DNA from: a virus
Length of the DNA stretch: 64,000 bases
Direction: 5' to 3' (one strand)
IMG/VR virus record: IMGVR_UViG_3300046787_000345
Span: 1 to 64,000 of that record
The stretch's first letter is position 1, and the number at the start of each line of letters is the position of its first letter. This document shows, piece by piece, positions 2,932-63,510 of this stretch. The notes under the pieces were generated by a model. It was not told the DNA's origin. It did not search any database and was given only the letters and a program-made list of their open reading frames with translations. The translations under genes were made by a program, and so were the position numbers.

Positions 2932-2932
2932 C

Positions 2933-3124
2933 TTAATCTTCCTCTTCTACTGAATATAAAATATACTTAACTGAATCAGTTGCAGGTTTTTCTGGGTCTT
3001 CTGCAGAATAATATACTTGATTATCAGCCAACCAAGCTTCACATAATTCGTATGTGTTCAAATGCTCAGTTCCTTCTACTGCATCAGTAGAACCTGGAAA
3101 TGTAATTTTGTAAGTTGTTGCCAT
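2933..3124 (-). CDS. Small acidic hypothetical protein
   Basis: ORF packed in the operon, 63 aa. Confidence 0.55.
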   Translation of the reverse strand: MATTYKITFPGSTDAVEGTEHLNTYELCEAWLADNQVYYSAEDPEKPATDSVKYILYSVEEED

Positions 3125-3154
3125 TTTGTATTTTCCTTTGTTTTATGTTAGTTA

Positions 3155-3406: not shown

Positions 3407-3407
3407 A

Positions 3408-3626
3408 TTATTTCTTATACCAAAAACTTTTCGGATTAGTTGAGTAATTACCATCTATTCTAATAGCTATTTCGTTTGATACTTTACTAGCAACATCATC
3501 GTTACCACTAAAATGTAAAACTATAAAAAATAACTGCATAGAAAGTGCTATTACACACCAACCTGCTGTAAAATAGACTAATCCTTGAATAAAATATTCT
3601 TCGATTTTTTTCTGTAAACTTTTCAT
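3408..3626 (-). CDS. Small membrane protein
   Basis: One long hydrophobic segment; preceded by ATATTTATA motif. Confidence 0.55.
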   Translation of the reverse strand: MKSLQKKIEEYFIQGLVYFTAGWCVIALSMQLFFIVLHFSGNDDVASKVSNEIAIRIDGNYSTNPKSFWYKK

Positions 3627-28011: not shown

Positions 28012-28437
28012 TTATTTACCTGTTGAACCAAATCCACCAGTTCCTCTTTCAGTAGTTGATAACTCATCTACTTCAGTCAATTCTATAATAGGATGTGGAA
28101 TAATCATAATCTGACAAACTCGTTCTCCTACTTTGTAAGATATAGAATCCAATCCATTTGATTTATTAAAAGTTGCTTGCAATTCTCCTCGATAACCCGA
28201 ATCAATTACTCCTACCGAATTACTTAATGTAAGTTCCGTATTTCTGATTGATGAACGAGGGAATACTAATCCAACAAATCCTTCAGGTATTTCCAATGCA
28301 ATACCCAATCCATATGTTATTTGAAAAGTAGTATTTGAAATGATTGATGTTGCCACCAAATCCAATCCTGCATCACTTTCCTTTGCGTACGCTGGGATTA
28401 TTGCGTTAGGATGTACTCTTTTTATTTTTACTTTCAT
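28012..28437 (-). CDS. dut: Trimeric dUTPase
   Basis: AGLDL, PRSS, GVIDSGYRG, ERGTGGFGSTG motifs. Confidence 0.95.
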   Translation of the reverse strand: MKVKIKRVHPNAIIPAYAKESDAGLDLVATSIISNTTFQITYGLGIALEIPEGFVGLVFPRSSIRNTELTLSNSVGVIDSGYRGELQATFNKSNGLDSISYKVGERVCQIMIIPHPIIELTEVDELSTTERGTGGFGSTGK

Positions 28438-30973: not shown

Positions 30974-31005
30974 CAAATATACGAAAAATATATGAAAAAA
31001 CCAAA
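30974..31005 (-). promoter_or_regulatory. Bacteroidota sigma-A-type promoter
   Basis: TTTG-N20-TATATTTG. Confidence 0.75.
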
Positions 31006-32273: not shown

Positions 32274-32305
32274 CAAATATACGAATAATATTCCATATTA
32301 CCAAA
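32274..32305 (-). promoter_or_regulatory. Bacteroidota sigma-A-type promoter
   Basis: TTTG-N20-TATATTTG. Confidence 0.75.
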
Positions 32306-33828: not shown

Positions 33829-35451
<1,623 letters not shown>

Positions 35452-35474: not shown

Positions 35475-35506
35475 CAAAGATACAAAATATTTTTGAAATT
35501 ACCAAA
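35475..35506 (-). promoter_or_regulatory. Bacteroidota sigma-A-type promoter for groEL
   Basis: TTTG-N20-TATCTTTG. Confidence 0.75.
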
Positions 35507-35554: not shown

Positions 35555-38500
35555 TTATCTACCAAATGTATATCTAATACCTAATTGTGCACTCCATACA
35601 TCAAATACTGATGAGTTGTACTGATAGGTATCTCTAGCTAAGATAGTAGAACCATCAGTTAATCTTTGAGTTGCTAATCTATATGATGGAACATTGTTTG
35701 CATCTCTACTTACAAAGTTCAACAATTGAGGAGCAGTTGCTCTTTGAGAAACACCGAATTGGTTATCAACTAAGTTACCAAAGTTTAAGATATCTGCTCT
35801 GATTTGGAATGAATTTCTCTTTCCACCAATCTTAACAAAGATATCTTGTGCTACTGATAAATCAAATCTATGTAAGTAAGGTAACAAACCACCATTTCTT
35901 TCAGCGTATTGACCTCTACGAGTTTTTAAGTAATCATCTTGGTCAATGAACTTATCAAATGCTGCTTGTTGTTCAGCTTCGGTATAAGTTCTTCCACCTG
36001 CAGTTAATGGTACGAATCTAATATCTGAACCTTTATTTGGAACGAAGATTAAATCGTTATTGTTTACTCTATCACCATTTAAATCACCTGCTGCAATATA
36101 AGAGAATGGATTACCTTGTTGTCCTACATATCCTAATGTAAATGTAGTTGCTCCACCATAGTTTCCGCCATATTCAATTCTATAACCTAATAAACCTACG
36201 AATCTATTCTTAACAAACGCATCTGCAAATGATAATCCTAAATCGTTATTACCATTAACTGATAATGCTGATTGCCAACTACCACTAGCGATTGAACCTG
36301 CACTCATATAATCTTTTGAGTTAGCAGTTGTCCAAGCGATTGAACCCCAAAATCCTTTTTGAACTGGTTTTTCTAATTTTAATGTCAATGATTCGTGGAA
36401 TGCACCATCTCTATTCGTAAGAACTGCTGCTCTACTTACATTGTTATTTACTCTTACAGTTGCATCACTTCCACCGAAACGAGGTCTATTATCTACACCA
36501 CCCAAAGTTCCAACAGGATTTCTTAGGTTAGCTTCGTAGTAATGAACTGCGTTAAGTGTTTGATTGTAAAGATATTCAGCACTTGCTATCAATCCGAAGA
36601 ATGGTAACTTTTGGTCTACTGCCAAATTAGTTTTCCATACCTGTGGGAATTTATAGTTAGGGTCTGTCAATGCTAAATCAAATGTAGATGGTAAAGTTGG
36701 AGTTGATGGGATAAAGTATTTGTTAGGGTCAGCAGTAAATCCATATTGTGCTGCTGCTGCACCACTTACATCAATAAATCCTGTCAACACCCCATTGTTA
36801 CCAATTTGGTTAGATAAGAATACATAAGGAGGTCTACCCGTGAATACACCAGTACCACCTCTAAATTGTGTTTTGCTTTCACCTTTTAAATTATAGTTGA
36901 AACCAACACGTGGTTCAAATAAAACTTGTGTTTTTGGCATTAAACCAGTATTCCATTTTTCTCCATTTGCAAATGTCATTGCAGATACTGCTTTGTTTTC
37001 TAACGCAGTATTATCAAATCCAATAATGTTTGCTCTAACACCAAACGTTAATTTCAAATCTTCAGTTGCATCATACTCATCTTGTAAGTATAAATCTAAT
37101 CTATTTGACCTTAAAGTTTGTAATGGTTCAATTGCTCCTGGTAATGCCGAATAACGGAATTGGAAACGAGCAGGTGCGAATGTAGACGGTCTACCACCAT
37201 TTGCTAATGATTGATTAGCTGCAGTATAAAAATCATTCAAACTATTGAAGATATAAACACCATTTGATGCAGGGAAGAATAAGTTATTAGATTCATAACT
37301 TTGAAAATTGAAACCACCTACTAATGTATGTTTGTTCAAATATTTTGTTAAGTTATTTGTTACGTTAAATGTAGAATAATCTAACTTATTTCCCGGAGTG
37401 AATGGGTCAAATCCTACTGATGTTAATGTAGTAGAACCTTGTAAGATATCAATCGTTGGAAACATTTGAGACATATAACCTCTATTTTCAATTTGTTTAT
37501 CATAAGAAACGATTAAGTTATTATGTAATGTATTTGAAAACTTTGAGTTTAATTCCAATACTGCTGAACGAGTATTATCCTGAATAGTATAGCCACTATT
37601 TTGGAAACTCATTGCATTGATGTTTTGTGTTCTATTACCGAAACCTGCAGATTGTGAATTTGATATACCGATTTGTGCCTCAGAATCATGATAAACGTAA
37701 CGTGCAGTTAATTTATTGTTTGCATTGATATTCCAGTCAACACGAACTAAAAATTTGTTAGATGTGTTTGTGTTAGAATATCCTTCAAATGGACCGGTTT
37801 CGTAGTTGAACTTATCTTTCATAAATTTAGAAAGGTCAGTCAATTGTTGGAAAGTTGGTCTACTCACTTGTGAACCCGTTAAAGGAGAACCTGATGAAAT
37901 CCAAGTTGTACCTGGTTCAGTTCTTTCGATGCCTTCGTAGTTACCAAAAATGAATAATTTGTTCTTAATGATTGGTGCACCTAAACGGAAACCTTGCACT
38001 CTTTCATCAAATTTAGATGGAGTAATAGTTGTTCCTCTTGCGTTATTACCAATGTAAGTAGAACTATTATTTCGTTGTGTTGTATATACCGAACCTTCAA
38101 CTTCGTTTGTACCACTTCTCGTTACTGCGTTGATACCTGCTCCGGTGAAACCAGATTGACGAATATCAAAAGGTGCAATATTAACTTGTAATTGGTCAAT
38201 CGCATCTAATGAAATAGCACTTGCTCCAGTTCTACCACCCGCTTGTGCAGATGAACCTAAACCGAAGTTGTTATTAAATTGAGAACCATCGATTGTGAAG
38301 TTATTCAAACGAGAATCTTGTGCTCCAAATGAGTTACCATTACCGAATGGATTGTATTTTGTAATACCATCGATAGTTCTAGCACCCACAATTGGGATAG
38401 TTTGTAATTCTCTACGAGAAAATTGTTGAGATGCACCGGTTCTTTCTCTTGAAATAATATTATTTCTTCCGGCTGTTACAACTACCTCTGATAATGTAGT

Positions 38501-38830
38501 TGTTCCATCAACTAAAATGAAATTAACGTTTGTAGTAATACCCAATTGAGTATTTACATCTTTAATTTCATCTTTTTTGTACCCTACATAAGTAGCGTGT
38601 AATACATATGGTCCACCTACTCTTGTTGCAGGTAGTACATAAGTACCATTTTTGTTGGTTACAGTGTTGTACTGCGTACCTGTCGGTGTATGTACTGCGT
38701 GAATCGTAGCACCTACCAACACTTCATTTTTCTCGTTCTTCACAACACCAGAAATTGAGGAAGTAGTAATCTGACTAAATCCAAAAAACGTGGTCATTGC
38801 AAAAACTAACGATAAAATCAGTTTTTTCAT
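35555..38830 (-). CDS. TonB-dependent receptor (Oar-like) with N-terminal carboxypeptidase-regulatory-like domain
   Basis: Signal ..GFSQ; LSEVVVTA TonB-box-like; IDG..NN.FG plug, INAVTRSGTN; C-terminal QLGIRYTF. Confidence 0.9.
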   Translation of the reverse strand: MKKLILSLVFAMTTFFGFSQITTSSISGVVKNEKNEVLVGATIHAVHTPTGTQYNTVTNKNGTYVLPATRVGGPYVLHATYVGYKKDEIKDVNTQLGITTNVNFILVDGTTTLSEVVVTAGRNNIISRERTGASQQFSRRELQTIPIVGARTIDGITKYNPFGNGNSFGAQDSRLNNFTIDGSQFNNNFGLGSSAQAGGRTGASAISLDAIDQLQVNIAPFDIRQSGFTGAGINAVTRSGTNEVEGSVYTTQRNNSSTYIGNNARGTTITPSKFDERVQGFRLGAPIIKNKLFIFGNYEGIERTEPGTTWISSGSPLTGSQVSRPTFQQLTDLSKFMKDKFNYETGPFEGYSNTNTSNKFLVRVDWNINANNKLTARYVYHDSEAQIGISNSQSAGFGNRTQNINAMSFQNSGYTIQDNTRSAVLELNSKFSNTLHNNLIVSYDKQIENRGYMSQMFPTIDILQGSTTLTSVGFDPFTPGNKLDYSTFNVTNNLTKYLNKHTLVGGFNFQSYESNNLFFPASNGVYIFNSLNDFYTAANQSLANGGRPSTFAPARFQFRYSALPGAIEPLQTLRSNRLDLYLQDEYDATEDLKLTFGVRANIIGFDNTALENKAVSAMTFANGEKWNTGLMPKTQVLFEPRVGFNYNLKGESKTQFRGGTGVFTGRPPYVFLSNQIGNNGVLTGFIDVSGAAAAQYGFTADPNKYFIPSTPTLPSTFDLALTDPNYKFPQVWKTNLAVDQKLPFFGLIASAEYLYNQTLNAVHYYEANLRNPVGTLGGVDNRPRFGGSDATVRVNNNVSRAAVLTNRDGAFHESLTLKLEKPVQKGFWGSIAWTTANSKDYMSAGSIASGSWQSALSVNGNNDLGLSFADAFVKNRFVGLLGYRIEYGGNYGGATTFTLGYVGQQGNPFSYIAAGDLNGDRVNNNDLIFVPNKGSDIRFVPLTAGGRTYTEAEQQAAFDKFIDQDDYLKTRRGQYAERNGGLLPYLHRFDLSVAQDIFVKIGGKRNSFQIRADILNFGNLVDNQFGVSQRATAPQLLNFVSRDANNVPSYRLATQRLTDGSTILARDTYQYNSSVFDVWSAQLGIRYTFGR

Positions 38831-40553: not shown

Positions 40554-42191
40554 TTATGGTTTATAGAAAACAAATATTGGTTCAAACTTATAAGCTTTAC
40601 CATCATGTTTTACTGCGTTTTTAATACCAGTTTTAGTTGGGTCTAATCCAACCATTCGAGTCATTAACATCTTTAATTTACCTTTGTATTGACATCCTAA
40701 TTCATTAAGAATATCAATGGAATCTTTTTCTAAAGCATAATAGGTATCTTTACCAATTTTAATATCTGCAATGTTCCATAGAATGTACCTATCATTCTTA
40801 GTATACTCATAGATAGTAGTTAAAGTAGGACGTAGGAAATTATCTCTCCAATCATCGTACTCACCATATGCTCTGAATGATTGATTCTCATCTTGTGAAT
40901 ATTGTTCTCTATTAAAGTATGGAGGTGATGTAAATGATAAATCCAACTTACCTTTGTATTTTTGGAACTTAGGATTATGTTGAATTAATTCAGAACCATC
41001 TTGAAACAATTCGTATGTATTACCTTGCTTTTCTACATCAAAGAATTTAGTAAATGTTTCAGAGAAATCATCCACACAATTATCATTGTAGAATTTAGCT
41101 GCATATTCATAACGAGATATCCCTAATTCTTCAATAAAGTTATCAGGATTTGGGTCAGTACCAATGTAATGGGTTTTCTTACGAGATGCCATTGCACCTA
41201 AAATTCTACCACCCCATCCACTTGATGAATCATAAATATGAAGAGGTTCATCTTGTTCAATATGTGATGTAAAATGTTCGTAAATCCACTTTGCAGTTAA
41301 TGCAGGAAAGTTTACTGCAGGTTGTCCACAACTTAAACGGAATACTTGTAGGATTTTTGGAAATATACCAACTGTCTTATCGTACCAACGAATCAAATAA
41401 TAAAACTTTTTAGTTGTTTTACCATCTGCAAGTGTCATACTATCTTCAATTACCTTAACATTTGATAATTGAGTTGGATTTAACCAACCATTATCTACAC
41501 ATCCTTGTAATTGTTCAGCAGTTAAATATAAGTTACCAAACCCAATATATTGTTCATTGATAGTTCCGTAATTATCAATAGTATCTTCTTTTACTTTTGC
41601 AATTACGATATCCAAATCAGAATGTTTACCTACAAAGATTTTACCTTCATGTACTTTCTGAATAAACTCTACACCAGTTTCACCATCCCAAAACTCATTC
41701 TCATCTTTTTTATTTACGATGGAACGTGACCACGAATACATAGAATCTCTTTTAACTGCTCTACGCATAATTTTCACAAACAATTCTTCTAAGTTAGGGT
41801 CAGAGAAATGGTCATAAATCGATAATCCACCATCAGCAGTTTTTCCGATTGAAATTTTAGTTTTCAACATTGTAGGGAAGAACTGATTAATAGCAGATGC
41901 ATCTTTGTTAAAATTCTGAATAATACCTAATGATTCGTCATCTCCTGTTAAATCTTTTTGTAGGAAATCACAATCGTTTCCCTTTAATTTTTTAAATGAT
42001 TCTATGATACCATCCTTATCTTTACCGATAACAGGAGGTACACCATCTTCATCCCATTGCTTTGTAACTTCTTTACGAAGTAACTTAGCCCAATTGATGA
42101 ACTCATCATCAGTCATTTGTAGTAACTGATGATAAGTTCTATTGGATTGGAATTCAGAAAATTTTGAACGTTCGTAGTAGTATTTACTCAT
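40554..42191 (-). CDS. SAM-dependent amino-methyltransferase-like protein
   Basis: YDSSSGWGGR motif I; FTSPPYFNREQY motif IV; EPIFVF. Confidence 0.8.
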   Translation of the reverse strand: MSKYYYERSKFSEFQSNRTYHQLLQMTDDEFINWAKLLRKEVTKQWDEDGVPPVIGKDKDGIIESFKKLKGNDCDFLQKDLTGDDESLGIIQNFNKDASAINQFFPTMLKTKISIGKTADGGLSIYDHFSDPNLEELFVKIMRRAVKRDSMYSWSRSIVNKKDENEFWDGETGVEFIQKVHEGKIFVGKHSDLDIVIAKVKEDTIDNYGTINEQYIGFGNLYLTAEQLQGCVDNGWLNPTQLSNVKVIEDSMTLADGKTTKKFYYLIRWYDKTVGIFPKILQVFRLSCGQPAVNFPALTAKWIYEHFTSHIEQDEPLHIYDSSSGWGGRILGAMASRKKTHYIGTDPNPDNFIEELGISRYEYAAKFYNDNCVDDFSETFTKFFDVEKQGNTYELFQDGSELIQHNPKFQKYKGKLDLSFTSPPYFNREQYSQDENQSFRAYGEYDDWRDNFLRPTLTTIYEYTKNDRYILWNIADIKIGKDTYYALEKDSIDILNELGCQYKGKLKMLMTRMVGLDPTKTGIKNAVKHDGKAYKFEPIFVFYKP

Positions 42192-42942: not shown

Positions 42943-42974
42943 CAAAGATACGAATAATTTTTGAATTATCCAAA
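42943..42974 (-). promoter_or_regulatory. Bacteroidota sigma-A-type promoter
   Basis: TTTG-N20-TATCTTTG. Confidence 0.75.
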
Positions 42975-42980: not shown

Positions 42981-45488
42981 TTAAAATGAGAAGAATTTCT
43001 CTGCTGTTTTTTGTTCACTCATCACTTCACCCCAATCTAAGGCGTTATAAAAATCTTGTAATTTACCCTTTAATTCGGCTTCGAAGATTCTATTATGGTC
43101 TATGTAGGTTGAAATGAATTTTGTTATTTCTTCGGGGTCATCATAACCTGTAAACCCTAACCCATCGATTCCTAATGGATTGTTTTTAAGATATACCCAT
43201 TTAATTTTATCACCATCTTTCATAGGTGAATATTTGAATGGTGCATTGAAATGTTTCAAACAATCATTATATAGAATTGCTGCTTTAACGTGAGCAGGAA
43301 CACCTTTCTCCATTTGGAAAAGTTGTCTTTTCTTTGGTAGATATTTTGATAAGTTTTTTACTGCAGAGTTTTTAGCAATTTCAGTAATTGGTCTATCTAC
43401 CATACTCTTTTTAAATGCGAGAACAAATGCTGTAATTTCTTCTTCTGGTTTACTTCGTAGGATATCAATTAAGACAGTTCCCATACACTCCTGAAATGCT
43501 TTTGGAAATGATGAACGTTTAACGTCTAATCCCTTAACATCTAATTTATCTACCGCAATACCATTGTTTGATATAATCCATTGAGCATAACGTTTCTTTG
43601 CAATCCAAATACCTGCTCTAGCAACGTATTCCTTTTTAATTTCCAATCGGTGTTTTTGAACGTTAAATAGTTTATCAGAAAGTATATCATAGAATTTATT
43701 CAGATAATCTTGCATTTCACCTGCAATACCATCCACCAATTGAGCAACTTCACTATCTGGCATTTCTTTCCAATTTGGATGACGAAAATCTAAAAGTGGA
43801 ACTGCTGAAAAGAATACTGAATCCGTATCGATATAAATGTTTGAATCTACATCGGTTGTACCTAACTCTTTATTGTATTTGATGTTCCCCATATTCGCCG
43901 AGTTTTTAATAACCGTCTGACCAGTAGTCGTAACCGCCTCAGCATTATCAACATCATAAAACCGAAAGGCAGGAAGACCAAGCACACCATAAAGAGAGTT
44001 AAGTAAGATTTTTTGAACCAACTGTCTTTTTCCGTAAAAGGCATATTTTTCTTTATCACCCTCCTGACCGTACTTCTTTTCCAATTTTCTAAATTCAACC
44101 CTTTCATTGAACCATATGTCTAATATTTCTGGAATACATCCTATTTTATCTTTACGATATAACACACCATTTGATGATATAGTTAAATCTGCTTCTTTAA
44201 TATATTTTTCTAAGTTATCACGTGAAATTCTATCATCACCCATTTGGTAATAATCAACTTCTTTTTTCATAAATGTTTGAACATCCCAATCCGAAATCTT
44301 AGCAACCTTAGTTTCTGGACTAATGTTCAAAGTCATAATGATTGATGGATATAGTGATGTTAAATCCAAATCATATACCCAGTCATATTTACCCACAATT
44401 GGGTCTTTTACATATGCACCGATAAACTTCTCCTCACCTGCTTCAGCCATAGCTGCGAGTTTCTCTTTTCTATCTGCAGGTTTATTTGGTGCAACCAATC
44501 CTTTACGTTTAAGGAAACATAGTAATGCACCCTCCAAATATTTCGATGAATAAACGAAATCTTCATATGGAACGTGACCTGCATGACAGATACCTCTACA
44601 TAAATCAATGAATTGTAATTTCTTATCTAATTCTACAACAATCTCAACGTCCACTAAGTTATACTCAATGAACTTTTCAATATCTTCGTTAAATAAATCA
44701 TCCAATGAACCTTGATACTCAATCTTACCTTTACCCAATTCAATTGTACCAATGGTATCCAAACGATAGTTAGGTAATTCGTTGTAGTTAAATTTCTTAT
44801 AAAGAGAAAGGTAATCTAAACAACTTACTCCAGCCAAAAACCATCTTTGACGATATGGTGAATAGAATGCTTGACCGATAGGTGATAATCTTTTTGCTTG
44901 GGATTCGCCTAAGATTCGTTTCATTCTATTGAATAGATAGGGAATATCGAAATTATCAATGTTCCAACCTGTTAAAATATCTGGTGCAATTCCTTCGTAT
45001 AACTCTAAGAACTTCATACACATATCTCTCTCATCTCTGAAAGGGATTACGATTGCCTTATCGGTTTTACGTTCAACCATTTGACCTTTCTTATCCATCA
45101 CCAATACCCAATATTGATTGGTTACACTATCTTGTAAACCAATCGCAGTAAGTTCGTTCTCTGCCTTTTCAGTATCAGGTAATCCACTCTCCATCTCCAC
45201 CTCAATATCGAAAGTCATTGTTACAATACCTTCGGATGGGATATCAGAATCGACATAAGTATCCACTAACACACGAGTTGTTTCTGGTACATCTGATTCG
45301 AATAAATTCGGGTCATCATTTTTGAATTTGTAAATTTTGGTTAATCGGTCACCATAGATGGAACGTGCTTCACCTCTCTCTGCCCTTTCATACGCATAAC
45401 GTGTGTATGGGAATGTTCTATAACCTAAATGGGAATCCCATAAATGTATTAGGTTTCTTTCTCTCTGATAGTATATATTCTTGTAAAT
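42981..45488 (-). CDS. polB: Family B DNA polymerase, probable ATT start at 45488
   Basis: FDIE, GWNIDNFD, YNLVDV exonuclease; DLTSLYPS, KILLNSLYG, YIDTDS, KKRY; frame open 72 codons upstream of the track's GTG start. Confidence 0.92.
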   Translation of the reverse strand: MYKNIYYQRERNLIHLWDSHLGYRTFPYTRYAYERAERGEARSIYGDRLTKIYKFKNDDPNLFESDVPETTRVLVDTYVDSDIPSEGIVTMTFDIEVEMESGLPDTEKAENELTAIGLQDSVTNQYWVLVMDKKGQMVERKTDKAIVIPFRDERDMCMKFLELYEGIAPDILTGWNIDNFDIPYLFNRMKRILGESQAKRLSPIGQAFYSPYRQRWFLAGVSCLDYLSLYKKFNYNELPNYRLDTIGTIELGKGKIEYQGSLDDLFNEDIEKFIEYNLVDVEIVVELDKKLQFIDLCRGICHAGHVPYEDFVYSSKYLEGALLCFLKRKGLVAPNKPADRKEKLAAMAEAGEEKFIGAYVKDPIVGKYDWVYDLDLTSLYPSIIMTLNISPETKVAKISDWDVQTFMKKEVDYYQMGDDRISRDNLEKYIKEADLTISSNGVLYRKDKIGCIPEILDIWFNERVEFRKLEKKYGQEGDKEKYAFYGKRQLVQKILLNSLYGVLGLPAFRFYDVDNAEAVTTTGQTVIKNSANMGNIKYNKELGTTDVDSNIYIDTDSVFFSAVPLLDFRHPNWKEMPDSEVAQLVDGIAGEMQDYLNKFYDILSDKLFNVQKHRLEIKKEYVARAGIWIAKKRYAQWIISNNGIAVDKLDVKGLDVKRSSFPKAFQECMGTVLIDILRSKPEEEITAFVLAFKKSMVDRPITEIAKNSAVKNLSKYLPKKRQLFQMEKGVPAHVKAAILYNDCLKHFNAPFKYSPMKDGDKIKWVYLKNNPLGIDGLGFTGYDDPEEITKFISTYIDHNRIFEAELKGKLQDFYNALDWGEVMSEQKTAEKFFSF

Positions 45489-45515
45489 AACCTTAAAATT
45501 TAATTGTTAGTAATA

Positions 45516-45547
45516 CAAATATACGAAATAATTTCCGTATTTCCAAA
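45516..45547 (-). promoter_or_regulatory. Bacteroidota sigma-A-type promoter for polB
   Basis: TTTG-N20-TATATTTG. Confidence 0.75.
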
Positions 45548-45555: not shown

Positions 45556-46395
45556 TTAAAACTTATAAATTCCACCAATATTCCAGAACAAAATAGTTCC
45601 TTCAATTTGGTCTATATTCTCTTCTAACCATTTCCATTGTTTTATATCCCAAAATTGGTTACAAGGGAATGGTGCTTCATATCCATCCAAACGATTTTCG
45701 AATAGATACTCTGATTTTCGTATGTTTAACGGAATTGGTATTCCACTCTTTTTTAGAGTTTTTTTGATTGAACTTTCAGATGATACACATGTTGTCCAAA
45801 TCTTTCTACTAACCGATGGGAAAAACTCTTTAAGTTCTTCTCTATAATATCCTCTAGCCAAACCAGATAAAGTTACTCCACTACCTGATGATACTACTAA
45901 ATTATCAAAATGTACGAATGGTTGAATTCTTTCTGCAAGATAATCTTTATAAAAATCGTGGTCAAAAGCGTAAGGTAACATTTGCCAACCATTTTCTCTT
46001 GCCTGACCTCTAAGTGAGTTGTACATAATCTGCATCATATTAGGTCTGATTGGATTCAAATGTACTTTTGGATACATTTCCTTAATCATTCCTAAATACT
46101 CTTGTGATATCTTTTTAGAATCAGGATGTGAAACATAAAATTCTATATCCAATTCTTCACATATTGCTGCAAGTGCCCAACCTGTCCAACTTCCATCTAC
46201 TGAAAGGTGGGTTAATGGTTTAGATTTATCAATATATTTTTTAACCAATTCATATAATGCTGCTACTTTTCCCCACGGCGGTAAAAGTGTACCATCACCC
46301 ATAAGGTCATCTCTTTTTACCCAAACTTCTCTACCTTTAATATGATAAAGTTCTAATGGAGTATCTTCATTTAAACCTTTTAATTTTAAATCCAT
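45556..46395 (-). CDS. Fold-type II PLP-dependent enzyme (ACC deaminase/D-cysteine desulfhydrase-like)
   Basis: VWVKRDDL...WGK (PLP lysine), SSGSGVT loop, LFWNIGG. Confidence 0.75.
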   Translation of the reverse strand: MDLKLKGLNEDTPLELYHIKGREVWVKRDDLMGDGTLLPPWGKVAALYELVKKYIDKSKPLTHLSVDGSWTGWALAAICEELDIEFYVSHPDSKKISQEYLGMIKEMYPKVHLNPIRPNMMQIMYNSLRGQARENGWQMLPYAFDHDFYKDYLAERIQPFVHFDNLVVSSGSGVTLSGLARGYYREELKEFFPSVSRKIWTTCVSSESSIKKTLKKSGIPIPLNIRKSEYLFENRLDGYEAPFPCNQFWDIKQWKWLEENIDQIEGTILFWNIGGIYKF

Positions 46396-47891
46396 TTATA
46401 CAACCCTCCTGCGTTTGATATCAACTCACCTTTCATACTTCTATGTGAGAATCCATAAATTTTTTCAAAATTATCCCCAATCACATTAATCATCTTCTTT
46501 CTATTTTTGAAATTGATGATAGGGTCATTTAAAATAATATCTTCAATATATTGTTTAAAGTTTGTACCTTTTTGAAATGCTCTTTTCTCTTGGTCTAATA
46601 TTTCATCAGGTAACTTACCTCTAAATGCATTTGCTAATGGTAGTTTCCATTGGTTTCCTTTTGCCAAGTATTCATCAGTAAGATTTGTGGTATAGTTTAA
46701 AAATTCTCTATCAAAGAATGGACATCTTAATTCGATTGTACCATAATTCATAAAGATATTGTTACCTCTTAATAAATTACCATAGTATTGTTTTTCAAAT
46801 AATTTTTTACGAACATCACTCCAATCTGGTTTCTTACTGAACATACGGAAAGTTCCATATGAACCATATGATTCATCACTACCCTCACCACTAAATGCTA
46901 CTTTGATACCATCCTTTGCCATTTCTTCGGCAATAAAGGATTGTAAAATACCCACTTCCATTTGAACAGTTGATGGGTATTCGATTACTTTAATTGAATC
47001 TATAAATCTTTGTTTAATTATTTCCTCATCACGAGGTACGAATACTTCTATCAATTCTACACCTAAATATTTGGCACATACTCTTGCTTTTTGTAAATCC
47101 TTAGATTCTTGGTCAAATGCAATTGTATACGCTTTTAGATTGGGAATTCTTTGTGATAGTAAATATGTAATAACTGCCGAATCAATCCCTCCACTTAATG
47201 ATGTGGCAATTGGAACATCTGAAAGTAGACGTTTGTCAACTGCACTTTCTAATAACTTAAAAGTAGTTTCAGCAACTTCATCATGTGAATTAACTTCAGT
47301 AGGTTCGGATGCAAACTGAAAATAGTAATTTTCGTTTACTACAATTGTATCAGTATCCAAATCAATCTCAACTAATGAGTTTTTTGGTACAAATTTTATA
47401 TCAGATGTTTTATGTTGGGTAACAATTGATTTTATTTCACTTGCAATAATATATTTGTTTGTGTTGTAAATATACAATGGCAACTTACCCACCCAATCGC
47501 GTGATACTAATAATTTGTTATTATCAAAAATAACAAACGAAAACATACCCTCAAGTCGTTTCAGTTCATTTTCTTTATATAAGAATAGGATAATTTCTGA
47601 ATCGGAGTTCGATTTAAATGTATACCCTCGTTCTTCATATTCTTTACGAAGTTGTGGGTAATTCCATATCTCACCATTTACTACTAATTCTACACCATCA
47701 TATTCCATAGGTTGATTACCCAAAGGAGATGTATCGTTAATAGATAAACGATTATGTCCTAAAATGATATGCTTATCTCCATACTTAAATTCTTTGATAC
47801 CGCGGTTATCTCTACCACGATGTTCAATTGCTTCAAGCATATCGTTCACATCTTCTTTATTATACCCTATGGTTGCTACGATTCCACACAT
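46386..47891 (-). CDS. Asparagine-synthetase-B-like glutamine amidotransferase
   Basis: N-terminal MCGI, HRG.D, RLSI, NGEIWN, SLSGGIDS, SGEGSDE, E.RCPF. Confidence 0.88.
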   Translation of the reverse strand: MCGIVATIGYNKEDVNDMLEAIEHRGRDNRGIKEFKYGDKHIILGHNRLSINDTSPLGNQPMEYDGVELVVNGEIWNYPQLRKEYEERGYTFKSNSDSEIILFLYKENELKRLEGMFSFVIFDNNKLLVSRDWVGKLPLYIYNTNKYIIASEIKSIVTQHKTSDIKFVPKNSLVEIDLDTDTIVVNENYYFQFASEPTEVNSHDEVAETTFKLLESAVDKRLLSDVPIATSLSGGIDSAVITYLLSQRIPNLKAYTIAFDQESKDLQKARVCAKYLGVELIEVFVPRDEEIIKQRFIDSIKVIEYPSTVQMEVGILQSFIAEEMAKDGIKVAFSGEGSDESYGSYGTFRMFSKKPDWSDVRKKLFEKQYYGNLLRGNNIFMNYGTIELRCPFFDREFLNYTTNLTDEYLAKGNQWKLPLANAFRGKLPDEILDQEKRAFQKGTNFKQYIEDIILNDPIINFKNRKKMINVIGDNFEKIYGFSHRSMKGELISNAGGLYKWI

Positions 47892-47892
47892 A

Positions 47893-48591
47893 TTATTTAT
47901 TTAATACTTCTAATAACTTATGAGTTTTTTTTGTTTCATCATTCATTTTACCGATATGACAAGAACATGCTAGAACTGATACTTTTTCTAATTCCATATC
48001 ACTTTCTTTAGCTAAGAATTTACCCATCTCAACTAATGCAGTATAATCTGCATAACCTGATTTAGATACTCTATTTGAACGAATAATTGATGTCAGATAA
48101 ATTTTACCATTACGAGGTTTGATATCAATTGCTAACATACAAGGTTGTGAATATGGATTTCTTGCATCTCTGCTTGGGTCAAAGATAATTAATTCACATC
48201 TCTTAACTGCTTTACCAGTCTTTAAGATTTTAATTACATTTTCTACCTGATTGAATGTTCCTTGCCATGCAACCATTCTACCCCAATATGAATCACTCCA
48301 TTTATCTTTAATAAATTTATATTCCAATCCTTCTTCTGCTGCAAAGAATGGACTATCTGAAACGTGTGGTTGTGGTTCTAAAAATGTTACTGTCTTTGCA
48401 TAATCAATTCTATCATCACCCATAATTTCTCTAAAATGTGGGTCAAACCAATCATCAGATTCAAACTTTGTGATTTCAGTCATCACATTTAGTTCTTCGG
48501 TTAAATCACCTACTTTTACTCCATTTGCAATAAGGTGTTTAGATACCTTTACCCATGCATCGCCGGGGGATGTTGCTTCTATTACTGTCAT
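47893..48591 (-). CDS. Divergent thymidylate-synthase-fold enzyme (dCMP-hydroxymethylase-like Asp)
   Basis: YWGR, NQVENV, PC catalytic Cys, RSNR, GYAD, SCHIG. Confidence 0.75.
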   Translation of the reverse strand: MTVIEATSPGDAWVKVSKHLIANGVKVGDLTEELNVMTEITKFESDDWFDPHFREIMGDDRIDYAKTVTFLEPQPHVSDSPFFAAEEGLEYKFIKDKWSDSYWGRMVAWQGTFNQVENVIKILKTGKAVKRCELIIFDPSRDARNPYSQPCMLAIDIKPRNGKIYLTSIIRSNRVSKSGYADYTALVEMGKFLAKESDMELEKVSVLACSCHIGKMNDETKKTHKLLEVLNK

Positions 48592-48602
48592 ATGTGTTTA
48601 TT

Positions 48603-49835
48603 TTATAATTTACGCCAGACCCATACAGGTTCACCAAACGTTTTATCTTTTGCTTCTTCGTTCTTTTTCAATTCCTCTTCGGAATATCTTTCTTCATCAC
48701 CATCTATAATCATCCCTGCCCCTGCAGAACCCGGTCTTTTAGCCATTTCCATACCCAAACACCCCTCGTAGTGTGCACCGTCTAGAGTGGAAATAAAATC
48801 GTTCATAGGATTAGTGATTTCTTGTTGACCTTTACCATCACCTTTCGATGATGCATACACATCGGCAATGTTTATAGCCAAATATCCACCTTTAGCGATA
48901 GTAGGCCAAACATTAGCGATTGTCTTATGTAAAAAGTTTTTATTCCAATCATCAATTGTTTTATATCTAATCCAACTTTGAGTGTCATCATATGAATAAC
49001 GTTCTACGTTAAAATAAGGTGGTGAACTGAATACAATATCGAAGTATTCTTTATATTCACTCAAATCCAAATCTTCTGCTGGAGATTCATAGAATGTTGA
49101 TTTCTTTTCCGTTTCGAAGAACCCATTGTTCTTCTCATAGAAATCTGCTTGTTGTCTATAAATTGGATGATTTTCTTTACGAGGGTCAATACCTACATAA
49201 TGCTCACCATGCTCGGATGCATAAAATCCACATAATCTATCACCCCATCCTGCTGAAATATCTAATACGTTTTTTGCTTCTACAAAATCGTATAATACTT
49301 TAGCAACGTTTGGTTTAAATTGTGAACAAATGTATTTTCGTAGGGATAGACACGTTCGTAAAGTATTCTTACTAACCTCATCGAATTTTAATGTATACAT
49401 TCCACCCATAAGGGAGAACATAAAATCTGGATTATTCCAAGTACGATAAGGACCAGGTGAAACTGTGCCATCAACACTCCATCTATTTGCTTGTTGGAAA
49501 TAGTTTGATGCTGGATTACCTGTATTTATTCTACGAACAAATTGTTGTTTTCCTTGAAATGTTAGTGGGTATTTGGATTCGGTTGCTTTTCGAGGCACCC
49601 ATTCTCCTTCAGTAAATAATTCATGCCAACGAAATCCTTTTAGTTTAAGGTATTCTTTTCTGGCTTCTTCTTCAGTAATATCTGCATATGGAATTTCGTA
49701 TGTTGCTGCTACTTTTGCTAAAGATTCTTTTACATCTTCTCTATCAAAAGTTCTTTTAATATACTCCCATTCTTCATTACCGATAAAGAGATATGGTGTC
49801 ATACCATAAAACTTATCAAAATATTCTAAATACAT
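48603..49835 (-). CDS. SAM-dependent amino-methyltransferase-like protein, paralog of 40554-42191
   Basis: SQFKP, LDISAGWGDR, FSSPPYFNVERY, EPVWVW. Confidence 0.8.
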   Translation of the reverse strand: MYLEYFDKFYGMTPYLFIGNEEWEYIKRTFDREDVKESLAKVAATYEIPYADITEEEARKEYLKLKGFRWHELFTEGEWVPRKATESKYPLTFQGKQQFVRRINTGNPASNYFQQANRWSVDGTVSPGPYRTWNNPDFMFSLMGGMYTLKFDEVSKNTLRTCLSLRKYICSQFKPNVAKVLYDFVEAKNVLDISAGWGDRLCGFYASEHGEHYVGIDPRKENHPIYRQQADFYEKNNGFFETEKKSTFYESPAEDLDLSEYKEYFDIVFSSPPYFNVERYSYDDTQSWIRYKTIDDWNKNFLHKTIANVWPTIAKGGYLAINIADVYASSKGDGKGQQEITNPMNDFISTLDGAHYEGCLGMEMAKRPGSAGAGMIIDGDEERYSEEELKKNEEAKDKTFGEPVWVWRKL

Positions 49836-49859
49836 AACCTTTTATTCTTTTATATTTTA

Positions 49860-49891
49860 CAAAGATACGAAAAATATTTCGTATTTCCAAA
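49860..49891 (-). promoter_or_regulatory. Bacteroidota sigma-A-type promoter for the modification operon
   Basis: TTTG-N20-TATCTTTG. Confidence 0.75.
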
Positions 49892-50077
49892 TTAAATGTG
49901 TGTCCAAGTGTGACGTTTTACGATTTCCTCAACATTCCATTTACTAACTTTAAAGTTTCTAGCGATAACGTTAGTAGAGAACCCTTGTTTAAAGAGTTCT
50001 CTAATTATCCTAACTTGTTCGTTTGTAAGTTTTGCTTTCGGATGATTTTCACCACACCTTTTATTTGATACACTCAT
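49892..50077 (-). CDS. Stand-alone HTH like the C-terminal DNA-binding domain of HNH homing endonucleases
   Basis: GENHPKAKLT..QV..IR, IARNFKVS, TWTHI; no nuclease domain. Confidence 0.6.
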   Translation of the reverse strand: MSVSNKRCGENHPKAKLTNEQVRIIRELFKQGFSTNVIARNFKVSKWNVEEIVKRHTWTHI

Positions 50078-59992: not shown

Positions 59993-60454
59993 TTATTTTG
60001 CCCATTTTCCATTGGAAACGATTTGGGCTATAATTCCATATACTGAAAGGTCTTGAAATGTATCTTCTAAGGATTCACCAACTAAATCTTCTTTGTTTAA
60101 AACTACTAATTGTTTCAAACGTTGGATTTTATCGTTTACTCTGAACCAAAGACCTGTTAGTGATAATTTCTTATCATCTTCAGTTTCTAAGGATGTACCC
60201 ACTGCAATGTTTCCTGGTCCATAATTGGATTGTTTCATGCAGAATAATTCATATTGAGTAAACATAATACGTTTAAACTCATCAGTCATTTCTGGATATT
60301 GTTTTTCGATTTCTTCTACGAGTTTGGGATTATCGTATTTGATGAACGCAACCTCATCATCGTTTTGTTCGATTTTAGGTGCGATATTAAGTTCTAACTT
60401 ATTCTTGCTCTCCTGTTTAATGATACGAGGAGTTTGTGTTGTGCTCTTTGACAT
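59993..60454 (-). CDS. DUF1599 / nucleotide-modification-associated domain protein
   Basis: KQSNYG, RVNDKIQRL, ESLEDTFQDLSVYG. Confidence 0.7.
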   Translation of the reverse strand: MSKSTTQTPRIIKQESKNKLELNIAPKIEQNDDEVAFIKYDNPKLVEEIEKQYPEMTDEFKRIMFTQYELFCMKQSNYGPGNIAVGTSLETEDDKKLSLTGLWFRVNDKIQRLKQLVVLNKEDLVGESLEDTFQDLSVYGIIAQIVSNGKWAK

Positions 60455-60478: not shown

Positions 60479-60510
60479 CAAATATACGAAATATATCTGA
60501 TACTACCAAA
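60479..60510 (-). promoter_or_regulatory. Bacteroidota sigma-A-type promoter
   Basis: TTTG-N20-TATATTTG. Confidence 0.75.
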
Positions 60511-60748: not shown

Positions 60749-60780
60749 CAAATATACGAAAAAAAACTGAAACTTCCAAA
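60749..60780 (-). promoter_or_regulatory. Bacteroidota sigma-A-type promoter
   Basis: TTTG-N20-TATATTTG. Confidence 0.75.
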
Positions 60781-63478: not shown

Positions 63479-63510
63479 CAAATATACGAAATATATTTGA
63501 ATTATCCAAA
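63479..63510 (-). promoter_or_regulatory. Bacteroidota sigma-A-type promoter
   Basis: TTTG-N20-TATATTTG. Confidence 0.75.

Follow-up and report, generated by a model that had tools for sequence, protein, structure and literature searches.

A four-gene module carried by an uncultured freshwater jumbo phage was found to be real, widespread and so far undescribed. We consider it reasonably likely that the module hypermodifies bases of the phage DNA and gives rise to a cytosine decorated at C5, a reading whose support is homology and gene neighbourhood. The target is probably the C5 position of cytosine. The original prediction of a novel base-hypermodification operon, possibly making a C5-substituted cytosine, is supported by co-conservation and fusions of the genes, homology to M6 gp52 and CmoY, a cytosine-type Asp in the TS-like enzyme and a separate ThyA. 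If the reading is true, phage DNA would be expected to be shielded from host nucleases.

The operon was analysed in a stretch of 64,000 nucleotides, referred to as the window. Read 5' to 3' on the minus strand, genes 1 and 2 are 11 nt apart, genes 2 and 3 are 1 nt apart, and genes 3 and 4 overlap by 10 nt. The promoter pattern TTTG-N18-22-TAnnTTTG gave 18 matches where 4.6 ± 2.1 were expected; one copy precedes the first ATG and the next follows the last stop, with zero copies within the cluster. The operon promoter has an extended consensus, TTTGG...TTCGTAT[AC]TTTG, common to about nine other intergenic minus-strand sites. By this layout the four genes are predicted to form one transcription unit. 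Upstream of it are nrdB, nrdA, thioredoxin and a 61-aa HTH gene, and polB is downstream. The tight packing, the single promoter and the location between nrdAB/trx and polB, all of which had been described earlier, are thus borne out.

Features of the operon and its surroundings. Positions are those of the window; enzyme classes and promoters are predicted from the sequence.
Feature	Position	Strand	Remarks
Complete cluster	49835-45556	(-)	4 genes
Gene 1 (P0001), MTase-like	48603-49835	(-)	410 aa
Gene 2 (P0002), TS-fold	47893-48591	(-)	232 aa
Gene 3 (P0003), glutamine amidotransferase	46386-47891	(-)	501 aa
Gene 4 (P0004), PLP enzyme	45556-46395	(-)	279 aa
Operon promoter, Bacteroidota-type, TTTG-N20-TATCTTTG	49860-49891	(-)	ends 24 nt before first ATG
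Next promoter, same type	45516-45547	(-)	operon 3' boundary, just past last stop; serves polB
Paralogous MTase-like gene	40554-42191	(-)	545 aa; 32% identity, E 1e-25
DUF1599 gene	59993-60454		25.8 bits, cut-off 25

Conservation of the module was followed in 78 distinct viral contigs chosen for a TS-like gene, after removal of duplicate entries (L059-L097, L099) and of the contig that represents the window itself (L050). In the 68 contigs that extend 2.6 kb or more downstream, the PP-loop enzyme was present in 67, the PLP enzyme in 65, a radical SAM enzyme in 4, one or other of the last two in all 68, and an MTase-like gene in 64; these figures apply to contigs selected by their TS-like gene and are not independent, the TS-like protein being at least 76% identical to that of the window in 47 of the 78. 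An MTase-like gene, either upstream or downstream of the core, was seen in 38/38 contigs with both flanks of at least 6 kb. A glutaminase-less PP-loop protein takes the place of AsnB in 16 of the 78, and in some contigs the PLP gene is swapped for, or accompanied by, radical SAM. Fusions join the TS-like protein to radical SAM (P0127) and radical SAM to N6_N4_Mtase (L100). Two contigs carry the module as an insertion between the T4-type clamp-loader genes gp44 and gp62. The TS-like family is nearly confined to viruses; a scan of one genome for each of 185,579 species returned a single match, a MAG contig that carries this module too. The module thus appears to move between phages as a unit, and the proposed check of gene-neighbourhood co-occurrence came out positive, the four functions being co-conserved through rearranged contexts and linked by fusions.

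With Pfam alone, three of the four domain calls were weak, and the assignments nevertheless agree with the original prediction. The weak calls were firmed up in PHROGs (phrog_7093, E 4.7e-24; phrog_12517, E 1.9e-16; TS phrogs, E 3.7e-8) and in NCBIfam (TIGR03283, E 1.9e-18). P0004 is assigned by homology to the fold-type-II PLP enzymes of the M6 gp52/phrog_7093 family. It scored 22.4 bits against Pfam PALP (cut-off 35) and is homologous to M6 gp52 along its full length (25% identity, 264 of its 279 residues aligned, E 5e-23). Its Lys43, invariant in a 14-sequence alignment (A5), aligns with gp52 Lys36, the proposed PLP lysine. M6 gp52 is described, in excerpts of PMC8989533, as a decarboxylase of alpha-amino-acid adducts on DNA pyrimidines.

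P0003 matched Pfam strongly (Asn_synthase, 147.6 bits; GATase_7, 107.1 bits) and is assigned to the asparagine-synthetase-family glutamine amidotransferases, within the CmoY-like class that depends on glutamine. Its glutaminase domain is intact, with a Cys nucleophile at the N terminus, and the PP-loop SLSGGIDS and an SGEGSDE motif are also present. It is related to gp124 of the Streptomyces phage TurkishDelight (32% identity, E 1e-75), whose gene is flanked by a C5-cytosine DNA methylase gene and a CmoA-like gene, and to S-B43 CmoY (E 2e-8); the glutaminase-less PP-loop forms of the module match the CmoY genes of phages S-B43 and vB-SscS-F1. Phage CmoY-type amide ligases, reported in 2025, act on 5-carboxymethylcytosine in DNA, where they adenylate the carboxyl on the modified cytosine and convert it to an amide; the family includes a glutamine-dependent class (PMC12783734, in part). 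P0003 passes the general NCBI asparagine-synthase model (TIGR01536; 294.7 against a cut-off of 267.1) and falls below the cut-off of the AsnB-specific model (258 bits against 499). Its Glu336, Asp339 and Glu340 are the equivalents of the human ASNS acidic cluster, which according to a section of PMC6748925 holds the aspartate amino group. Because it passes the general model and keeps this cluster, P0003 could still use free aspartate. Human ASNS Asp-400 is replaced by Asn in 16/16 distinct module amidotransferases and in TurkishDelight gp124.

P0002 is predicted to be a divergent thymidylate-synthase-fold enzyme: it scored 20.1 bits against PF00303 (cut-off 24.3), reached an hhalign probability of 97.4% with the phages' own ThyA, and in Atlas 30/30 feature matches were TS clusters. 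Cys151 would be the nucleophile, Arg171 and Ser172 are retained, and Asp182 occupies the base-selecting position. These residues and His212 do not vary among 13 representatives of the family, and they align with ThyA Cys146, Arg166, Ser167, Asn177 and His207; in MilA, Cys155 and Asp186 align with Cys151 and Asp182. At the selecting position Asp marks the cytosine type and Asn the dUMP enzymes, as stated in portions of PMC5175136 and PMC8670742. Since Asp replaces the Asn of dUMP enzymes, P0002 is expected to act on a cytosine nucleotide and to activate its C5. In all four complete relatives a canonical ThyA (about 300 bits) is encoded elsewhere in the genome. ThyA Asp169, which we take to be a folate contact, is replaced by Arg in P0002. 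Tyr209 of ThyA, a 3'-OH contact (PMC5175136, in part), is replaced by Gly, and the first 100 residues of P0002 gave no alignment with ThyA. Given these differences, P0002 may catalyse something other than a folate one-carbon transfer and may act on a substrate other than a free dNMP.

P0001 resembles N6/N4-type DNA methyltransferases in its motif I (DISAGWGDR) and motif IV (FSSPPYF), which lie behind an N-terminal domain of about 170 aa, and is assigned to them on this basis. Its matches to Pfam MTase families were sub-threshold (E 0.011 at best), with faint ones to RNA-methylase-type families (e.g. Cons_hypoth95, E 0.069); its relatives match the DNA-methylase family PF01555 (best E 5e-13). 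Across 35 distinct members of the family, conservation of the SAM-binding and SPPY motifs is at least 90%, and an Arg directly after motif I is invariant. Up to five MTase-like paralogues surround the core in some contigs (L120-L127). A 72%-identical orthologue of the 545-aa paralogue lies directly upstream of TS-AsnB-PLP in another phage lineage, and this paralogue probably belongs to the same system. The closest named relatives of the MTase-like protein are ordinary viral N6/N4 methylases, and the MTase-like genes could simply be neighbours that encode ordinary anti-restriction methylases.

We propose that the TS-like and PLP enzymes (radical SAM elsewhere) would build a C5 side chain on cytosine whose amino-acid-like group contains both a carboxylate and a primary amine. 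With ammonia from glutamine, the amidotransferase would convert the carboxylate to a carboxamide, and the MTase-like enzyme(s) would then methylate the side-chain amine or the ring amino group in DNA. Within this scheme the product is a tentative guess, rather unlikely to be exact: a 5-(2-amino-2-carbamoylethyl)cytosine-type base, or a decarboxylated or methylated relative. Against the C5 reading, a single carboxylate would be in demand by both the amidotransferase and a decarboxylase of the gp52 type. Neither a 5-hmdU kinase nor an amino-acid:DNA transferase was found in the window's own record and four complete relatives (0/5), in line with the pair's reported absence from the window; the kinase search recovered the known M6 gene. 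CmoA and a C5-methylase, candidates for installing the carboxyl handle, were likewise found in 0/5 records. CmoA gave no match in a Bacteroides control genome either, so carboxy-SAM may not be available from a Bacteroidota host. A dCMP deaminase was found in two of the four complete relatives and a dUTPase-family gene in three of the five records, which indicates no consistent T4-like dCTP-exclusion machinery.

The prominence of the MTase-like genes, constant in contigs with long flanks, repeated as paralogues and fused to radical SAM, and with conserved SAM-binding and SPPY motifs and the invariant Arg, would suit a different chemistry, which we regard as fairly unlikely. Here the SPPY enzymes would transfer a carboxyl-bearing group to N4 of cytosine or N6 of adenine in DNA, from SAM (3-amino-3-carboxypropyl) or carboxy-SAM (carboxymethyl), in a diphthamide-like or Mom-like manner; the PP-loop enzyme would amidate the carboxylate, the PLP enzyme would decarboxylate or trim the amino-acid end, and the TS-like enzyme would merely supply a 5-methyl- or 5-hydroxymethyl-cytosine nucleotide. 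A SAM-derived aminocarboxypropyl group, named as an alternative in the original prediction, would supply the amidotransferase with a carboxylate and the PLP enzyme with a primary amine. The diphthamide pathway combines a radical-SAM-type transfer, a methylase and PP-loop amidation, a parallel that may favour such a route. However, it leaves a universally conserved TS-like enzyme with a side role and the TS::radical-SAM fusion unexplained, the nearest named MTase relatives are ordinary methylases, and the CmoA result speaks against the carboxy-SAM donor. Less probable again is synthesis before incorporation, with P0003 a true asparagine synthetase, the PLP enzyme decarboxylating a free amino acid (e.g. 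Asn to 3-aminopropanamide), and the amine trapping a TS-like exocyclic-methylene intermediate on dCMP; the resulting 5-(alkylaminomethyl)-dCMP would be phosphorylated and incorporated by the phage polymerase. The TIGR01536 score, the acidic cluster, the operon's place between ribonucleotide reductase/thioredoxin and polymerase, and the use of free host amines in other phage thymine modifications (PMC13458397, in part) would agree with it, but gp52 and CmoY work on DNA rather than free metabolites. Failure in the AsnB-specific model, the Asn at Asp-400, the lack of a consistent dCTPase set, the PLP/radical-SAM swap and the DNA-methylase-domain fusions also argue against it.

It is very improbable that the genes are chance neighbours from ordinary auxiliary metabolism and DNA methylation without a common product, in which case a Dam-like methylase would sit beside a spare thymidylate synthase, an asparagine synthetase and a threonine-dehydratase/ACC-deaminase-like enzyme. 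The database names (thymidylate synthase, asparagine synthase, threonine dehydratase) and the richness of jumbo phages in metabolic genes, with GroEL-like and TonB-receptor-like genes in the window, would allow it. Yet the set is co-conserved through rearrangements and unrelated genome contexts and joined by fusions, ThyA is separate from a TS-like enzyme with a cytosine-type Asp, the PLP enzyme falls in a DNA-adduct decarboxylase family, and a glutaminase-less CmoY-like ligase can replace AsnB. Equally hard to credit is an RNA target (phage or host tRNA/rRNA), by analogy with cmnm5U/ncm5U/acp3U-type modifications. CmoA, MnmC-like and other DNA hypermodification enzymes came from RNA modification (PMC12783734 and PMC8989533, both in part), and P0001 has its faint RNA-methylase-type matches; but no tRNA gene was found in the 64-kb window, the MTase-like relatives match PF01555, the characterised PLP and PP-loop homologues work on DNA, and the module is located among replication genes. 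DNA hypermodification at cytosine C5 is the reading preferred here.

Two further genes had been pointed out in the surroundings. The MTase-like paralogue had been placed just past a clamp gene; the paralogue was confirmed, but the clamp was not, as the 237-aa gene between it and polB had no Pfam match and matched phrog_12062 only (function unknown). The DUF1599 gene, correctly called at 59993, contributes nothing specific to the reading.

The four genes of the operon encode, in transcription order, an MTase-like protein (P0001), a thymidylate synthase (TS)-like protein (P0002), an AsnB-type amidotransferase (P0003) and a PLP enzyme (P0004). They are spaced by gaps of 11 nt and 1 nt and, between the last two, by an overlap of 10 nt, and all the surrounding genes lie on the same strand. 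Upstream are genes for a DnaB-like helicase, nrdB, nrdA, thioredoxin and a 61-aa HTH protein, with RecA, a gp32-like SSB and a DUF1599 protein farther away; a family-B DNA polymerase gene is located downstream. The window comprises the initial 64 kb of a 72,756-bp virus record (estimated completeness 40%), has a G+C content of ~0.28-0.37 throughout and contains no tRNA genes.

Both intergenic regions flanking the operon share the motif TTTGGAAATACG..TTTCGTAT[CA]TTTG, which fits the Bacteroidota promoter type TTTG-N19-21-TAnnTTTG. The promoter pattern occurs 18 times in the window as against 4.6 +/- 2.1 times in shuffled sequences, and 18 was reached by 0/100 shuffles. A generic sigma-70 scan stayed at chance level (26 sites, 28.2 expected). 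On the coding strand the extended form is located in intergenic gaps. One copy precedes gene 1, the next follows gene 4 and none lies inside the four-gene cluster, in agreement with the original prediction that the four genes are served by a single promoter. Contigs covering parts of the operon, mostly at 90-95% identity, were present in four freshwater metatranscriptome runs, where DNA carry-over is possible and the transcript is not defined; two short pieces from one run are identical to the operon. Taken together, the RNA-library contigs constitute weak evidence of expression.

Coordinates of the operon, the extended-consensus promoter copies and other features (positions in the window unless another contig or phage is named)
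Feature	Position	Strand	Size or remark
P0001, MTase-like	49835-48603	minus	410 aa, first in transcription order
P0002, TS-like	48591-47893	minus	232 aa, second
P0003, AsnB-type amidotransferase	47891-46386	minus	501 aa, third
P0004, PLP enzyme	46395-45556	minus	279 aa, fourth
Promoter copy	49860-49891	minus	directly before gene 1
Promoter copy	45516-45547	minus	directly after gene 4
Promoter copies, rest	30974-31005, 32274-32305, 35475-35506, 42943-42974	minus	
Promoter copies, rest	60479-60510, 60749-60780, 63479-63510	minus	
P0001 paralogue	40554-42191		545 aa
HTH ORF	49892-50077	minus	61 aa
polB, open frame upstream of the called start (45272)	45273-45506	minus	78 codons
CarboxypepD_reg + outer-membrane beta-barrel protein	35555-38830	minus	1091 aa
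GroEL-type chaperonin	33829-35448	minus	
DUF1599 gene	59993-60454	minus	
GT4 glycosyltransferase	28439-29833	minus	
dUTPase-family gene	28012-28437	minus	
TS-like ORF with endonuclease part, contig L107	6233-7687		484 aa
ORF beside canonical ThyA, contig L052 (relative G003)	2496-3461		321 aa
gp124 locus of phage TurkishDelight (L133)	88490-93518		

The conservation of the gene set was followed in other viruses. The operon gave no megablast match to 50,697 phage records, and the cultured phages of that collection carry no close homologue of the TS-like protein, the top tblastn match being 26% identical. Relatives of the TS-like gene were found in IMG/VR on 78 distinct viral contigs (identity 34% to 98%; longest contig 375,691 bp), with re-fetched duplicates and the window's own locus left out. 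Gene classes on these contigs were counted by tblastn with several queries per class; all the counts presuppose the TS-like gene, and many of the contigs are closely related. Where at least 2.6 kb was available downstream of the TS-like gene (68 contigs), a PP-loop gene was present on 67 (53 AsnB-type, 14 glutaminase-less), a PLP gene on 65, a radical SAM gene on 4, one or the other of the latter two on all 68, and an MTase-like gene on 64. An MTase-like gene was also present on each of the 38 contigs with both flanks of at least 6 kb.

The survival of the gene set through rearrangement is a stronger argument than these conditional counts. The MTase-like gene is positioned upstream in some lineages and downstream in others. 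The adjacent MTase is of the paralogue type at loci L103-L119, and the core is flanked by three to five MTase paralogues at L120-L127. At L048 and L049 the four genes, with their order kept, lie between T4-type clamp-loader gp44 and gp62, followed by regA, and at L106 the order is AsnB, radical SAM, PLP. Two fusions link components of the module, one of a TS-like and a radical SAM protein (P0127) and the other, of 801 aa, of radical SAM and N6_N4_Mtase (L100). A non-viral scan of one genome per species (185,579 species) gave a single relative, a MAG contig with MTase, TS, PP-loop and radical SAM genes. The TS-like family is abundant in metagenomes, where it forms 228 clusters at 90% identity (E <=0.001, among 340 candidates) and 14 clusters at 50% identity (E <=1e-30), and the module occurs in runs from many freshwater studies.

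P0002 can be assigned to the thymidylate synthase/pyrimidine hydroxymethylase superfamily by sequence and profile matches. Its score with Pfam PF00303 is 20.1 bits (cut-off 24.3), and its top family model is that of the short archaeal TS, TIGR03283 (E 1.9e-18; 66.7 bits, cut-off 174.55). In hhalign, a 57-sequence P0002 alignment matched the phages' own ThyA with 97.4% probability (E 1.4e-11, 122 columns), and the narrow 13-sequence family did so with 43.5% probability only. The alignment is confined to the C-terminal ~125 residues, the first 100 residues being unaligned. TS clusters account for 30/30 feature matches of P0002 in the Atlas, and the closest solved structure is the CMP hydroxymethylase MilA, a weak match (E 0.015). 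The pairs Pro150-Cys151 and Arg171-Ser172 are invariant in 13/13 family representatives and align with PCH and RS of ThyA. Cys151, Arg171, Ser172, Asp182 and His212, each invariant in the same 13, correspond in the profile alignment to ThyA Cys146, Arg166, Ser167, Asn177 and His207, and the HMMER alignment places the catalytic Cys and Asp on MilA Cys155 and Asp186. Arg166 and Asp169 follow E. coli ThyA numbering. At the position of Asp169, which we take to be a folate contact, P0002 has Arg174 and some family members have Ala. Of the contacts to the sugar 3'-OH, His212 is kept, and the Tyr209 position is occupied by Gly214, which varies across the family. The Asn of thymidylate synthases (E. 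coli Asn177) is missing from P0002, and Asp182 stands there in all 13 representatives; Asp at this base-selecting position marks cytosine-using enzymes and Asn uracil-using ones (PMC5175136, PMC8670742). The numbers Asn177, Ser167, His207 and Tyr209 are as in the cited papers.

P0002 thus resembles T4 gp42 (dCMP hydroxymethylase) and MilA in its TS fold, Cys nucleophile and cytosine-selecting Asp, and its Lys130-Arg131 pair is like Lys133-Arg134 of MilA. Unlike these enzymes, it is only 232 aa long with an N-terminal half that does not align with ThyA, has Gly for the 3'-OH-binding Tyr and Arg at the Asp169 position, and its gene is always coupled to that of a PP-loop enzyme. The family appears to form a new TS-fold clade, the entry enzyme of the module, and is predicted to address cytosine C5. 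The residue differences, together with the chain of fusions leading to a DNA-methylase domain, hint at action on DNA. The 484-aa TS-like ORF of L107 has a homing-endonuclease part (GIY-YIG + NUMOD3) ahead of its TS part, owing to either a fusion or the insertion of a mobile endonuclease gene.

P0003 begins with Met-Cys and has a class-II glutaminase domain followed by an Asn_synthase domain (147.6 bits) with the PP-loop SLSGGIDS and the motif SGEGSDE. Its top cultured-phage relative is gp124 of Streptomyces phage TurkishDelight (32% identity, E 1e-75), and it matches CmoY of Synechococcus phage S-B43 over the whole length (E 2e-8); its PP-loop domain is homologous to CmoY. In the S-B43 pathway (Yang et al., Nat Commun 2025, PMC12783734), C5 of cytosine in DNA is carboxymethylated by CmoX to give 5-carboxymethylcytosine, whose carboxyl is then joined to glycine by the asparagine-synthetase homologue CmoY, yielding the glycine amide. 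Another large class of CmoY contains a glutaminase domain, and ammonia is its predicted substrate (PMC12783734). The authors of this study of the CmoA-CmoX-CmoY system, published in December 2025, did not obtain soluble enzyme of the glutamine-dependent class (PMC12783734).

In 16/78 contigs of the present set a glutaminase-less PP-loop protein takes the place of AsnB. Their matches are to CmoY of S-B43 and of Staphylococcus phage vB-SscS-F1, both encoded between CmoA-like and C5-methylase genes; the match to the CmoY-like protein of vB-SscS-F1 covers the full length (27% identity, E 8e-15). Since both AsnB-type and glutaminase-less proteins match CmoY homologues, the two forms of the middle gene correspond to the two CmoY classes, and the module, like the CmoY homologues, possesses glutaminase-containing and glutaminase-less members. 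Ligases were sampled in the 2025 survey on CmoX-bearing contigs only (PMC12783734), and hence the module falls outside its coverage. The module is like S-B43 in that an asparagine-synthetase-family PP-loop enzyme adjoins an enzyme directed at cytosine C5, which it attacks through addition of a thiol; for the module this role is predicted. Unlike S-B43, it has neither CmoA nor a DNMT-fold C5 enzyme (0/5 records, the window's own and four complete relatives), contains a TS-fold enzyme in their place, and adds a gp52-like PLP or radical SAM enzyme and N6/N4-type MTase-like genes. A carboxyl handle in the module, if any, must arise in another way.

TurkishDelight gp124 itself is flanked by a C5-cytosine DNA methylase (PF00145, 183 bits) and a small methyltransferase-fold protein. 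In NCBIfam, the latter matches CmoA, the carboxy-SAM synthase, best (E 2.6e-25), with a score that stays under the equivalog cut-off. This arrangement matches the CmoA-CmoX-CmoY system and predicts 5-carbamoylmethylcytosine in a cultured phage. In addition to this methylase, the glutamine-dependent AsnB/CmoY-like enzyme and the CmoA-like protein, the locus encodes two ParB-like proteins.

P0004 is a fold-type-II PLP protein with a PALP score under the cut-off, and its top solved relative is the ACC-deaminase homologue 1j0a. It matches phrog_7093 over residues 11-274 of 279 (E 4.7e-24), and its relatives in the phage collection are limited to 62 records (51 from Pseudomonas, 9 from Bordetella), M6 and YuA included. 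The M6 match is gp52, which aligns end to end in BLASTP (25% identity, E 5e-23). In this alignment P0004 Lys43 takes the position of Lys36, which has been proposed as the PLP lysine of gp52. Among 28 PLP proteins of the module, both Lys43 and the G.G.T loop are conserved, and the lysine is invariant in the 14 sequences of family alignment A5. These alignments place P0004, PLP lysine included, as a full-length homologue in the family of the PLP decarboxylases M6 gp52 and ViI gp226. In M6, gp52 is the PLP-dependent decarboxylase that converts C-alpha-glycinyl-thymine in DNA to 5-(2-aminoethyl)uracil, and ViI gp226 carries out the same decarboxylation on O-seryl-thymine (Lee et al., PMC8989533). 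The thymidine hypermodification pathway of Pseudomonas phage M6 and Salmonella phage ViI consists of a dUMP hydroxymethylase, a 5-hmdU DNA kinase, an amino-acid:DNA transferase, a radical-SAM isomerase and the PLP decarboxylase (Lee et al., NAR 2021/22, PMC8989533).

The module shares with this pathway a TS-family enzyme, a PLP enzyme of the same small family as M6 gp52 (phrog_7093), a radical SAM gene adjoining the PLP gene in some variants (L106), and a location among replication and nucleotide-metabolism genes. It differs in having no 5-hmdU kinase and no amino-acid:DNA transferase, and in that the amidotransferase and MTase-like genes are integral to it. The TS-like enzyme has Asp rather than Asn, and therefore the predicted target is cytosine rather than uracil. 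The radical SAM enzyme of the variants has no sequence similarity to M6 gp53, and its top PDB match, AprD4 (E 0.0047), was uninformative. In the neighbourhoods that it describes, the M6/ViI study places unexplained 'amidoligase and glutaminotransferase' neighbours only on contigs with kinase and transferase (PMC8989533).

P0001 gave no PF01555 match in Pfam and hit general MTase families only (E 0.011-0.069). PF01555 is matched by module relatives of P0001 (E 1.4e-5, 5.5e-5 and 5e-13), and its nearest Atlas clusters are viral N6/N4 methylases, with PF01555 in 29-76% of members. A PDB sequence search with P0001 yielded no useful match, and there was no similarity to the TurkishDelight C5-methylase. 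The protein contains DISAGWGDR and FSSPPYF, which we take to be motif I and motif IV of methyltransferases. Of these, D.S.GWG.R and TSPPYF are found in at least 90% of the family (35 distinct sequences), and family alignment A4, with 21 sequences, shows them invariant. The family bears the SAM-binding motif I and the catalytic (D/N/S)PP(Y/F) motif IV. The second MTase-like gene noticed earlier in the window proved to be a paralogue of P0001 (32% identity, E 1e-25).

Searches for the known entry enzymes covered the window's record and four relatives rated complete by CheckV, one of them with terminal repeats. The 5-hmdU DNA kinase (PF18748) was found in 0/5 records by a search that recovers the known M6 gene, and the amino-acid:DNA transferase (PF18724), CmoA (TIGR00740) and C5-methylase (PF00145) were likewise found in 0/5. 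The lack of a kinase and amino-acid transferase pair, noted originally for the window, holds across these five records. A canonical ThyA (~300 bits) is encoded far from the module in 4/4 complete relatives, a dCMP deaminase in 2/4 of them and a dUTPase-family gene in 3/5 records.

Homology and gene neighbourhood support the view that the module is dedicated to DNA-base modification and that its tailoring enzymes stem from the two known hypermodification lineages. For the PP-loop enzyme a carboxylate is required, for the PLP enzyme a primary amine; most simply both would be provided by an alpha-amino-acid moiety. Because of these needs, the interchange of PLP and radical SAM enzymes and the fusion of radical SAM to the TS-like protein, a three-step model is favoured. 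The TS-like enzyme, with the PLP or radical SAM enzyme, would build an amino-acid-type side chain on C5; the amidotransferase would amidate this side chain; and the MTase-like enzymes would methylate the amidated product. The loss of the 3'-OH Tyr and the folate-contact Asp, and the fusion of the TS-like protein to a radical SAM enzyme that is elsewhere fused to a DNA-methylase domain, form the basis of a tentative extension of the model, which we consider possible and well short of probable. Here the TS-fold enzyme would have been recruited, possibly acting on DNA, as the C5-activating partner of the PLP/radical SAM enzyme, so that an amino-acid-type side chain is grafted directly onto cytosine and both the hydroxymethyl-kinase-transferase and the carboxy-SAM routes are bypassed. 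A new amino-carboxamide cytosine would then be completed by the CmoY-like amidotransferase together with MTase-like enzymes that are sequence-specific; the phages concerned, jumbo and T4-like, are from freshwater and marine sites. By analogy, the module may be compared with diphthamide biosynthesis, in which a radical-SAM-type aminocarboxypropyl transfer, a SAM methylase and PP-loop amidation act together. Both would combine a radical-SAM/SAM-dependent transferase, a methyltransferase and ATP-dependent carboxylate amidation; the diphthamide pathway differs in having no TS-fold or PLP enzyme and in targeting a protein histidine.

Other readings of the gene set were weighed against this model. 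An aminocarboxypropyl or carboxymethyl group could be placed on an exocyclic N by the MTase-like enzymes, a route that we regard as unlikely. The module could also supply a precursor through free Asn. P0003 aligns with E. coli AsnB over residues 19-446 (E 4e-40) and passes the general asparagine synthase model TIGR01536 (294.7 bits, cut-off 267.1), and it fails the AsnB model NF006949 (258 bits, cut-off 499). The aspartate amino-group pocket of human ASNS is made up of Glu364, Asp367, Glu368 and Asp400 (PMC6748925). P0003 keeps Glu336, Asp339 and Glu340 of this pocket; the position of Asp400 is Asn372 in at least 90% of 16 distinct module enzymes, and Asn also in TurkishDelight gp124. Supply through free Asn is given a low probability. 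For plain auxiliary metabolism, with a canonical ThyA present elsewhere in the complete relatives, the chance seems very small. RNA modification appears just as improbable beside a PLP enzyme related to decarboxylases acting on DNA.

Hypermodification of DNA is a main means by which phages escape restriction and CRISPR, and it also provides enzymes for the labelling of DNA and for the chemistry of sequencing. To our knowledge two entry routes have been known so far, hydroxymethyl handles (kinase + transferase, glycosylation, carbamoylation) and, since 2025, a carboxymethyl handle. The module, which is common in uncultured aquatic phages, contains neither of the known entry enzyme sets, yet has downstream tailoring enzymes of both around a new TS-fold clade. 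We regard it as a phage hypermodification gene cluster, with a realistic chance of new entry chemistry and a new base. If the prediction is right, the module would provide a third entry route to hypermodified cytosine together with a new base, and four gene families, labelled at present 'thymidylate synthase', 'asparagine synthase', 'threonine dehydratase' and 'hypothetical protein', would gain a function. A family of related products is suggested by the exchanges seen in nature (AsnB or ligase, PLP or radical SAM, one to five MTase paralogues). No description of this gene combination was found in the literature, although members may be listed among the supplementary contigs and ligase clusters of PMC8989533 and PMC12783734.

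The extended promoter consensus, TTTGG...TTCGTAT[AC]TTTG, is of the Bacteroidota TTTG/TAnnTTTG type and is repeated along the minus strand. The host indicated by this repeated promoter is a member of the Bacteroidota, and the copies may help to map the transcription units of the phage. Immediately upstream of the operon promoter, the 61-aa HTH ORF shows similarity (phrog_20467, E 4.7e-9) to the DNA-binding C-terminus of HNH/homing endonucleases from phages, and may be a remnant or a small regulator. The 78 open codons upstream of the called polB start, the first GTG, read by eye, resemble a PolB N-terminus (...FESDVPETTRVLVD...) and contain no ATG, GTG or TTG; the start could therefore be non-canonical (ATT or ATA?) or the sequence erroneous. 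The 1091-aa beta-barrel protein is TonB-dependent-receptor/SusC-like, and a GroEL-type chaperonin gene is also present. The DUF1599 gene ('nucleotide modification associated domain 1') is found in 4/5 related records at 10-14 kb from the module, and the GT4 glycosyltransferase gene ('GT4 in conflict systems', PF20706, E 2e-8) in 5/5 at 64-100% identity. As each lies 10-20 kb away and neither is specific, they were set aside as evidence for the module. The dUTPase-family gene adjoins the GT4 gene. In one relative, the 321-aa ORF beside canonical ThyA presumably encodes an S-adenosylmethionine synthetase (GAGDQG motif, by eye). If so, the phage would provide SAM itself, as would suit the many SAM-dependent enzymes that such phages encode.
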